DNA of 64,000 bases from NCBI GenBank assembly GCA_937903605.1, contig CALCZC010000025.1, forward strand, positions 206,618-270,617, given 5' to 3'. Position 1 is the first letter of the stretch. Every line of letters starts with the position of its first letter. Below, one piece after another: positions 6,349 through 6,650 of this stretch. The stretch comes from an uncultured bacterium. GTDB taxonomy: Bacteria; Patescibacteriota; Patescibacteriia; Magasanikbacterales; GWA2-37-8. A program made the translations under genes and the position numbers. Under the pieces are notes generated by a model that saw only the letters and a program-made list of their open reading frames with translations, did not search any database and was not told the DNA's origin.

Positions 6349-6650
6349 GGGCCGGTAGCCCCTCACCTATGCCTTTATGTTTTACGTTTATCTTATAAAA
6401 AGTAAAATAGATGAGAGCACTTACATTGGCTATACAAACGATCTAAAAAGACGCTTGGTTGAACACAACAAAAGACTGAATAAGTCTACCAAGAACAAAG
6501 CGCCTTTTGAGCTCGTTTATTACGAAGCTTATAAAGAAATGGCTGACGCAAAACATAGAGAATTTAATTTGAAACGTTTTGCCAAAGCTTATCAACAGTT
6601 AAAACTACGCCTTAAGGACAGCCTAAAGGCATAGGTGAGGGGCCGGTAGC
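6349..6650 (+). mobile_element. GIY-YIG nuclease mini-element inserted at the 5' end of tRNA-Lys (11-bp direct repeats plus 14-15-bp terminal inverted repeats)
   Basis: GGGCCGGTAGC at 6349-6359 repeats the tRNA 5' end at 6640-6650. CCCTCACCTATGCC (6360-6373) and GGCATAGGTGAGGG (6626-6639) are perfect inverted repeats that bracket the ORF; its stop codon lies inside the right repeat. Confidence 0.55.
6377..6634 (+). CDS. GIY-YIG nuclease family protein (UPF0213/YhbQ/Slx1-like)
   Basis: 85 aa; FYVYLIKS...TYIGYTNDLKRRLVEHN is the GIY-YIG core. Confidence 0.8.
   Translation: MFYVYLIKSKIDESTYIGYTNDLKRRLVEHNKRLNKSTKNKAPFELVYYEAYKEMADAKHREFNLKRFAKAYQQLKLRLKDSLKA

Follow-up and report, generated by a model that had tools for sequence, protein, structure and literature searches.

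A stem-enclosed GIY-YIG nuclease cassette in a tRNA-Lys gene of a Magasanikbacteria-type bacterium, a probable homing-endonuclease gene that leaves the tRNA complete

In a 64,000-nucleotide stretch of DNA from a Magasanikbacteria-type CPR bacterium (hereafter the window), a tRNA-Lys gene is immediately preceded by a small nuclease ORF and, upstream of that, by a second copy of its own first nucleotides, which raises the question of how such an arrangement arose and how the tRNA gene remained whole. The locus comprises MurE and a Translin-family gene, after which come, divergently oriented, tRNA-Lys, a small ORF, and a MiaB-like gene, and this order is conserved in relatives. The duplicated segment is 11 nt long (GGGCCGGTAGC) and has only two exact copies in the 64-kb window, at 6349..6359 and 6640..6650 (both + strand). 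The count of this 11-mer at up to one mismatch was reached by 0/100 shuffles. The downstream copy constitutes nt 1-11 of an intact tRNA-Lys(UUU) (6640..6713, + strand; detected by ARAGORN, with an Rfam score of 70.5 bits), while the upstream copy, contiguous with the native leader, is a relic of the same segment. An 11-nt direct repeat duplicating the start of tRNA-Lys had been proposed in the original prediction, and it is exact at both sites.

Between the two repeat copies lies the cassette proper (6360-6639, + strand), 280 bp long with a non-coding part of only ~22 nt. Its sole ORF encodes an 85-amino acid minimal GIY-YIG nuclease of the UPF0213 or bacterial Slx1-like type (6377..6634, + strand; Pfam PF01541, 1e-15), and no transposase adjoining the cassette was found in the window. 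The ORF is enclosed by a perfect 20-nt inverted repeat capable of forming a 20-bp stem, with the left arm (GCCCCTCACCTATGCCTTTA) at 6358..6377 and the right arm (TAAAGGCATAGGTGAGGGGC) at 6624..6643, both given on the + strand and separated by 246 nt. The left arm begins with the last 2 nt of the first repeat copy and ends on the A of the ATG start codon, while the right arm holds the last codons and the stop codon (TAG, 6632-6634) and extends over the first 4 nt of the tRNA. The stop codon had been expected within the right inverted repeat, as is the case, and the assignment of the ORF as UPF0213-like is upheld by the Pfam hit and by matches to the structures 1ZG2 and 1YWL. The inverted repeats had been described as perfect and 14 nt in length, of which the perfect pairing stands but the length does not; nor are they confined to the space inside the direct repeats, as the left arm overlaps these by 2 nt and the right arm by 4 nt. 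No other copies of the 14-nt arm or of the 11-mer beyond those expected by chance were found in the window.

The tRNA-Lys unit appears to be served by a promoter-like site (TTGATT, 17-nt spacer, TATCAT; 6279..6307, + strand) that gave 9/12 matches in a consensus scan. The same scan revealed no stronger candidate between this site and the ORF, and the promoter region is almost unchanged between alleles with and without the cassette. An AT-rich hairpin with a T-run 3' of the tRNA (6717..6751, + strand), a weak signal read by eye, is likely the end of the transcription unit; it was missed by a terminator scan because its stem contains fewer than three G-C pairs.

Comparison with syntenic relatives indicated that the cassette is an insertion. 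Filled alleles are present in the window, L001-L010, and L088 (Translin 83-100% identical) and carry 291 extra bases. In contrast, L091 and L089/L090 (Translin 85-86% identical) possess a single tRNA, one copy of the 11-mer, and no cassette, with the conserved leader joined directly to GGGCCGGTAGCTCAGC. The tRNA-Lys sequence itself is the same in filled and empty alleles. Given that these relatives retain tRNA-Lys and one 11-mer but lack the cassette, the locus displays an insertion polymorphism. The comparison with empty sites that had been suggested for this locus therefore turned out positive, and two findings named beforehand as incompatible with insertion, namely the gene lacking repeats at this position in all relatives, or an 11-nt match due to an unrelated partial tRNA pseudogene, were not encountered.

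The divergence of the filled alleles is also unevenly distributed. Between the window and L002, the block at 6349-6713 contains 3 mismatches in 365 nt (0.8%), whereas the difference amounts to 9.4% in the leader, which also has a 32-nt indel, 11.3% in Translin, 23.7% in the tRNA 3' flank, and 26.7% in the MiaB-like gene. Compared to L088, the same block differs by 4.4% and the flanks by 10-54%. Synonymous divergence follows the same pattern, with a dS for the cassette ORF of 0.04 (L002) and 0.29 (L088), versus 0.52 and 1.34, respectively, for Translin, and ~1.2 for the MiaB-like gene. By both measures the cassette has diverged much less than the sequence around it, which indicates that an intact gene spread laterally in the recent past. 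Divergence restarts a few bases outside the first repeat copy and outside the tRNA 3' end, so that the transferred tract is edged on both sides by tRNA-derived sequence. The cassette junctions are identical in three diverged host lineages, and the first repeat copy has decayed to 9 nt in L009. Judging from these alignments, the cassette entered the same site in host lineages whose divergence preceded its arrival.

Other tRNA genes were found to carry this layout as well. When the subfamily to which the window belongs was defined by arms starting GCCCCTCACC, eight further loci were recovered, each with a cassette after nt 11-12 of a tRNA and a repeated 5' segment whose second copy begins at +1. 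The targets comprise tRNA-Ala(UGC) (L096, L100, and L178), an Ala-like tRNA fragment upstream of tRNA-Ala(UGC) (L174), tRNA-Ala(GGC) (L181), tRNA-Val(GAC) (L182), tRNA-Lys (L099), and a Gly-like tRNA fragment (L097/L098). With the window included, the repeat is 11-12 nt long in 9/9 members and in each case matches the member's own tRNA. In all eight, the right arm reaches into the live tRNA and covers its nt 1-4 (nt 1-2 in L099). The break falls at TAGC^TCA in eight targets and at TAG^TTCA in the Gly-like one, TAG(C) being common to all, and except for L099 the targets start with GGGC.

Other subfamilies carry longer duplications, of 19 nt at tRNA-Lys, 22 nt at tRNA-Glu, ~29 nt at tRNA-Val, 35 nt at tRNA-Ser, 41 nt at tRNA-Pro, and 57 nt at tRNA-Asp. 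All of them begin at tRNA +1, and the older relics have diverged. Chains of relics and several cassettes are present at L099, L174, and L178, while at L103 only 3 nt separate the cassette from the tRNA downstream of it, and no relic is present. The duplicated tRNA segments consist of 63-83% paired positions, which leaves no power for a test of whether changes cluster in stems in relic versus live copies, as would be expected of a relic derived from a different functional allele; a Val relic at L178 contains one compensated D-stem pair relative to the live tRNA, which is suggestive only. The claim in the original prediction that a tiny selfish element had targeted a tRNA gene is borne out by the empty sites, the low divergence of the cassette, the eight other tRNA loci, and the purifying selection described below, and the regeneration of the tRNA 5' end upon insertion that it had envisaged is supported by the empty sites with one 11-mer and by the eight other loci, each with its own 5' duplication.

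Several lines of evidence concern the stem that encloses the ORF. In an RNA fold of 6335-6725, the minimum free energy structure forms the stem (z = -5.8), and 72/107 evaluable CPR homologues had perfect inverted repeats of 12 nt or more at the ORF ends. Arm positions 13-20 were 70-94% paired, compared to 28-66% when the partner was slid by 1-2 positions, with 3-6 pair types at each position, and the five closest cassettes displayed compensatory double changes at positions 11 and 13-20. The outer 8-10 nt of the arms, on the other hand, keep a C-rich motif (CCCCNCAC) across subfamilies. Since the inner arm sequence varies with compensation, selection appears to act on pairing rather than on protein binding. 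In a strand test, G.T mismatches in the stems outnumbered A.C mismatches by 10 to 2, or by ~6 to 3 after allowing for relatedness and for an A.C in the L002 variant, a weak trend toward a strand bias for pairing at the RNA level. In the minimum free energy fold it is also the relic (GGGCCGG), and not the live 5' end, that pairs with the 3' strand of the tRNA, and given this predicted pairing the relic could compete or interfere in tRNA maturation. The likeness to stem-bracketed four-helix-bundle cassettes that had been pointed out for this locus is reinforced by a 23S_rRNA_IVP gene elsewhere in the window that is bracketed by a 36-nt inverted repeat. This gene and its inverted repeat stand outside any rRNA gene.

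The encoded protein consists of the GIY-YIG core only. By sequence similarity over residues 2-79 it matches PDB entries 1ZG2 (5.5e-7) and 1YWL (1.6e-3), its GIY, YIG, Arg, and Glu motifs align with those of 1ZG2, and it belongs to the Slx1/UPF0213 branch rather than the I-TevI/Seg branch. UPF0213 proteins of the 1ZG2 and 1YWL type have been placed in the Slx1 family as bacterial members lacking additional domains (Dunin-Horkawicz et al., PMC1564403), and bacterial Slx1-like GIY-YIG proteins have been described as mostly vertically inherited (PMC1564403). Relative to a 95%-identical copy, the ORF has accumulated 12 synonymous and 4 non-synonymous changes (pN/pS ~0.08), indicating an intact gene under purifying selection. 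No Shine-Dalgarno sequence was found 5' of the ATG, and with the start and stop codons located within the stem, translation may consequently be poor. The 85-amino acid protein has no DNA-binding domain and therefore no obvious means of site recognition; speculatively, it might recognize structure, by analogy with Slx1. A scan of viral contigs for the protein returned one weak giant-virus match and no sign of a phage vector.

Homologues of the cassette ORF, which are 45-75% identical within CPR, also occupy sites other than tRNA genes. Of 80 distinct CPR ORFs, 14 are embedded in a 16S or 23S rRNA gene and 13 adjoin tRNAs, and in both groups the cassette is oriented as the RNA gene without exception (14/14 and 13/13). 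The 16S and 23S cassettes, which include L016, L028, L038, L111, and L162, sit in helices. The remaining CPR cassettes separate protein genes that run in the same direction, and many of them immediately precede ribosomal-protein genes, atpD, or mraZ; at such sites the right arm sometimes re-creates the downstream start codon. No abutting direct repeat longer than expected by chance was detected at the rRNA or protein-gene sites of sister cassettes. Several related cassettes can be present in one genome (L022/L023, L178), and one related locus has a weak Y1_Tnp neighbor.

Outside CPR, 26/46 homologues in Alphaproteobacteria (Enterousia and relatives) follow a tRNA (Gln, Thr, Pro, or Gly) of the same orientation at a distance of ~100 nt. 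In 6 of these 26, 12-21 nt from the tRNA 3' end are repeated downstream of the ORF, and in 5/6 the repeat reaches the exact end of the tRNA. The alphaproteobacterial layout is a mirror image of the 5'-end form in CPR, and small GIY-YIG genes may thus be associated with tRNA genes in general. At the left edge of the window, a second GIY-YIG ORF is found 170 nt downstream of a tRNA-Gln on the same strand.

Based on the data presented above, 6360-6639 is probably a free-standing homing-endonuclease cassette, built in the manner of an rRNA intervening sequence (IVS) and devoid of its own promoter, that invaded the single tRNA-Lys transcription unit of this bacterium after nt 11. The insertion polymorphism, the recent spread into exactly one site, the purifying selection, and the recurrence of the layout at other tRNAs constitute the observed part of this explanation. 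Because a second copy of nt 1-11 is present 3' of the cassette, a complete tRNA gene is retained and the old nt 1-11 upstream are a dead relic. The ORF would be transcribed within the pre-tRNA from the promoter-like site at 6279-6307, and the proposed lack of an ORF promoter would fit the invariable co-orientation of cassettes with their host genes. The stem would then act in the RNA as it does in an rRNA IVS, with the insert either isolated or excised by RNase III, so that RNase P could still free tRNA-Lys from the copy at 6640. An approximate E. coli RNase III query had no match in the 64-kb window, which says nothing about the rest of the genome.

With respect to mobility, the nuclease would cut cassette-free tRNA genes near nt 11/12, at the conserved TAGC^TCA motif of the D-arm, and the break would be repaired from a filled copy, with the relic serving as the left homology arm and the live tRNA as the right. 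As such a unit would bring its own homology arms, a recipient would need to share only the tRNA. Repair through tRNA arms would account for a low-divergence tract that ends at the first repeat copy and the tRNA 3' end, for duplications that always begin at +1, and for the restriction of repeats to tRNA insertions. At rRNA and ribosomal-protein sites, the lack of repeats could reflect the availability of long conserved flanks together with an interruption that is tolerated or avoided. Some observations count against this homing model: the filled allele keeps a complete tRNA, and hence an uninterrupted target, with no sign of protection from self-cleavage, and a left homology arm of 11 nt is short for recombination. 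The model also leaves unexplained how the cassette was first established at each new tRNA species.

An alternative, implied by the direct and terminal inverted repeats as read in the original prediction, is that the cassette is a transposon-like mini-element, with the nuclease acting as a transposase-like enzyme that makes cuts staggered by 11 bp in GGGCNNNTAGC, fill-in of which would generate an 11-bp target-site duplication spanning tRNA nt 1-11. The fixed 11-12 nt repeat together with precise cassette ends in 9/9 members of the subfamily suits a staggered-cut duplication no less well than repair through homology arms, the junctions shared by three diverged host lineages are likewise in keeping with it, and the conservation of the outer 8-10 nt of the arms across subfamilies is as would be expected for an end recognized by a protein. 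However, the longer duplications of 19 to 57 nt in the other tRNA subfamilies all start at +1, and we know of no staggered cut that would yield such a series. Moreover, sister cassettes in rRNA genes or between protein genes have no abutting repeat above chance, the inner arms vary freely with compensation, as expected for pairing rather than protein binding, and GIY-YIG enzymes are not known as transposases. The GIY-YIG enzyme SegB leaves 2-nt overhangs (PMC2330249), far from an 11-bp stagger. We thus regard a transposon-like origin as a possible but distinctly less probable explanation than a homing-endonuclease cassette.

Other readings fare considerably worse. It is improbable that the GIY-YIG protein is a host factor in tRNA/rRNA or DNA maintenance that is co-transcribed with tRNA-Lys, with the stem and the 11-mer forming a regulatory or processing signal. 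While purifying selection on the ORF, the mostly vertical inheritance described for bacterial Slx1-like proteins (PMC1564403), and the predicted pairing of the relic with the tRNA 3' strand are all compatible with such a role, presence and absence differ among close relatives with an identical tRNA, divergence of the cassette is 4- to 30-fold below that of its flanks, related cassettes occur at many unrelated sites with several copies per genome, and the relic is decaying in L009. It is still less probable that tRNA-Lys was doubled in tandem around the ORF and the upstream copy then eroded to 11 nt. The relic chains and tRNA clusters at L099, L174, and L178 would be in line with this idea, but empty alleles have a single tRNA, the break falls exactly at nt 11-12 in nine independent loci representing at least four tRNA species, and relic and cassette directly adjoin each other, with nothing left of tRNA nt 12-76. 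A self-splicing group I or II intron, or some other known structured RNA, that harbors a homing endonuclease has a negligible probability here. Group I introns do occur in tRNA genes of Patescibacteria (PMC13011429), but the cassette is located at a D-stem-region site with a duplication instead of in the anticodon loop, and the GIY-YIG-bearing rRNA insertions of CPR are likewise unlike introns (PMC11270868). An Rfam search over 6250-6780, at the gathering score and at E values up to 1, returned only the tRNA, and ~22 non-coding nt are present, leading us to reject an intron or ribozyme.

Extending the homing-endonuclease explanation beyond this locus, we tentatively suggest that stand-alone Slx1-like GIY-YIG genes, whose products have long been regarded as housekeeping proteins, might be the cargo of widespread, undescribed minimal parasites of tRNA genes, each a homing module with two arms made of tRNA, of which the CPR 5' form would be enclosed by a stem and the alphaproteobacterial form would be its 3' mirror image. 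By analogy, the constant +1 boundary and the position of the breaks in loops and stems of the cloverleaf (nt 11, 19-22, 35, 41, and 57) could mean that the nuclease reads the structure of the tDNA, as Slx1 reads branched DNA, and not its sequence. If this parasite reading is true, the module could pass from one genome to another with only the tRNA in common. Should the nuclease turn out to recognize a conserved motif of tRNA genes specifically, it would rank among the smallest site-specific nucleases known. The cassette ties together three subjects hitherto considered apart, namely rRNA intervening sequences, the GIY-YIG insertions in CPR rRNA genes, and the uncharacterized bacterial UPF0213/Slx1-like proteins, for which it suggests a testable function. 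There are also implications for annotation, in that relic tRNA fragments, genes annotated as GIY-YIG fusions, and tRNAs overlooked by tRNA finders in CPR genomes may be traces of such cassettes.

Among known systems, tRNA genes are classic targets of large integrase-borne elements that restore the 3' end of the gene, and here a 280-bp element that encodes no more than a nuclease core achieves a comparable restoration of the 5' end. To our knowledge, this is an unusual route for the harmless invasion of an essential single-copy gene. Integrase-borne islands and prophages are known to employ tyrosine or serine recombinases and to be kilobases long, and they usually restore the 3' end, using the att copy that they bring along. 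They resemble the cassette in targeting a tRNA gene, in the flanking partial tRNA copy, and in the regeneration of a functional gene, but the cassette has no recombinase, restores the 5' end, and is only 280 bp. Insertion sequences and MITEs are comparable in their inverted ends, their very small size, and, for the window's subfamily, an abutting direct repeat of fixed length. They differ in that the cassette has no known transposase, its arms covary, it leaves no duplication at non-tRNA sites, and its orientation is always that of host transcription. Free-standing homing endonuclease genes of fungal mitochondria (e.g., at Allomyces atp6) arrive with a copy of the terminal segment of the host gene, and the displaced resident segment persists as a fragment. 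These cases differ in involving protein genes, 3' ends, and larger nucleases, with no stem.

The cassette may also be compared with elements that share its nuclease family or its stem. SegB of phage T4 is a GIY-YIG homing endonuclease that targets a conserved tRNA-gene motif through a 27-bp recognition site (PMC2330249). Like the cassette ORF, its gene stands outside an intron and among tRNA genes, in T4-like phages, and it spreads with flanking DNA by break repair (PMC2330249); unlike the cassette protein it is a larger enzyme, and it has neither a bracketing stem nor a tRNA-end duplication. The rRNA IVSs that contain an ORF (S23p / 23S_rRNA_IVP; Coxiella burnetii, Leptospira 23S) are similar in being inserts of 0.3-0.45 kb in a stable-RNA gene with a 20-28 bp stem enclosing a small ORF. 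The Coxiella IVS, for example, is 428 nt with a 28-bp terminal stem around its ORF, and RNase III cuts it mid-stem (PMC4990558). Such rRNA IVSs are co-transcribed with the host RNA and cut by RNase III. A location in an rRNA helix, which is a feature of IVSs, is seen in the 16S and 23S relatives of the cassette and not at tRNA-Lys, where the host is a tRNA gene and the insertion is harmless through duplication of the tRNA 5' end instead of through placement in a dispensable helix tip. The cargo likewise differs, the cassette encoding a nuclease and hence a plausible means of mobility.

The closest relatives in protein family and phyla are GIY-YIG ORFs in non-group I/II insertions of CPR rRNA genes, which Tsurumaki et al. 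2024 (J Bacteriol, PMC11270868) found at scattered sites and thought to stand outside a homing context. Cassettes L016, L028, L038, L111, and L162 are of that kind, while the tRNA-Lys cassette differs in that its data point to recent lateral spread into one site. The words 'tRNA', 'inverted repeat', and 'direct repeat' have 0 occurrences in that paper, and bracketing stems and duplications are not mentioned (PMC11270868). A 2026 survey of tRNA introns in Patescibacteria (PMC13011429) covers group I and II only, leaving GIY-YIG and duplications unmentioned. In the searchable literature, which is incomplete and could hide an earlier description, we found no account of a stem-bracketed GIY-YIG cassette with a tRNA 5' duplication. 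The element is therefore best filed as a new combination of two parent kinds that are both known, namely a free-standing homing-endonuclease gene with the build of an IVS that invades a tRNA gene by means of 5'-end regeneration.

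Sister cassettes, the related GIY-YIG cassettes at non-tRNA sites, were located at the exact positions of ATGA-type operon junctions in other CPR genomes (loci L107, L113, L110/L014, and L013). At these junctions, the left arm of the bracketing inverted repeat immediately followed the upstream stop codon, while the right arm terminated in AT/GT or included ATG, and therefore restored a start codon to the downstream gene. At L013, the arm supplied the first codons of atpD.

Serial cassette invasions of tRNA loci were also observed (L099, 300-1146; L174, 1085-1602; L178, 630-1800). 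The first of these carried three copies of tRNA-Lys nt 1-19, together with a pair of distinct GIY-YIG ORFs and a single insert lacking an ORF. The Ile-Ala and Ile-Val-Ala tRNA clusters of L174 and L178, respectively, contained chains of relics, i.e., leftover upstream copies of tRNA 5' segments, and two or three cassettes. In L178, a compensated D-stem pair distinguished the tRNA-Val relic from the live gene, and a third GIY-YIG at this locus was annotated as a pseudouridine synthase fusion. Directly upstream of the tRNA-Ile/cassette/tRNA-Ala cluster in L174-L177, a 239-aa gene (299-1018) displayed a weak match to Y1_Tnp, an IS200/IS605-type transposase.

Elsewhere in the window, a 23S_rRNA_IVP four-helix-bundle gene (minus strand, ORF 44000-44380; PF05635, 3.7e-32) was enclosed by a 36-nt, 94% inverted repeat of AAAGATTT-type units, with ordinary protein genes on both sides. 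This segment (43950-44441) is an rRNA intervening sequence (IVS)-type cassette located outside any rRNA gene. Long AT-rich inverted repeats with units of ATTTTAGATTT(A/T)TGATTT were found at 22385-23776, 23744-24292, and 49670-51172, enclosing a U32 peptidase gene, rplU, and a PLD-like gene, and these look like a genome-wide intergenic repeat family. A Translin-family protein gene (5655-6230, minus strand; PF01997, 1.3e-16) was divergent from the tRNA-Lys promoter, and its position beside this promoter was kept in all Magasanikbacteria relatives examined. To our knowledge, members of this family are uncommon among bacteria.

A second GIY-YIG ORF, beginning MQFVYLLENKIDKSWYIGFTTNLKKRLKEHLSGL, was present at the start of the window (1-103, minus strand; PF01541, 3e-9) and continued beyond it. 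On the same strand, tRNA-Gln (273-346, minus strand) was followed by a terminator-like hairpin and, 170 nt downstream, by this ORF. Among the Alphaproteobacterial homologues (L040-L087; e.g., L049 17-497, L040 1816-2343, and L083 1060-1704), 26/46 had a co-oriented tRNA approximately 100 nt upstream, a layout shared with the window-start ORF and tRNA-Gln. In six Alphaproteobacterial homologues, the tRNA 3' end was duplicated over 12-21 nt on the far side of the ORF, which mirrors the 5' duplication in CPR. In others (L073, L074, and L085), direct repeats of 17-30 nt, copies of the tRNA-distal hairpin, flanked the ORF.
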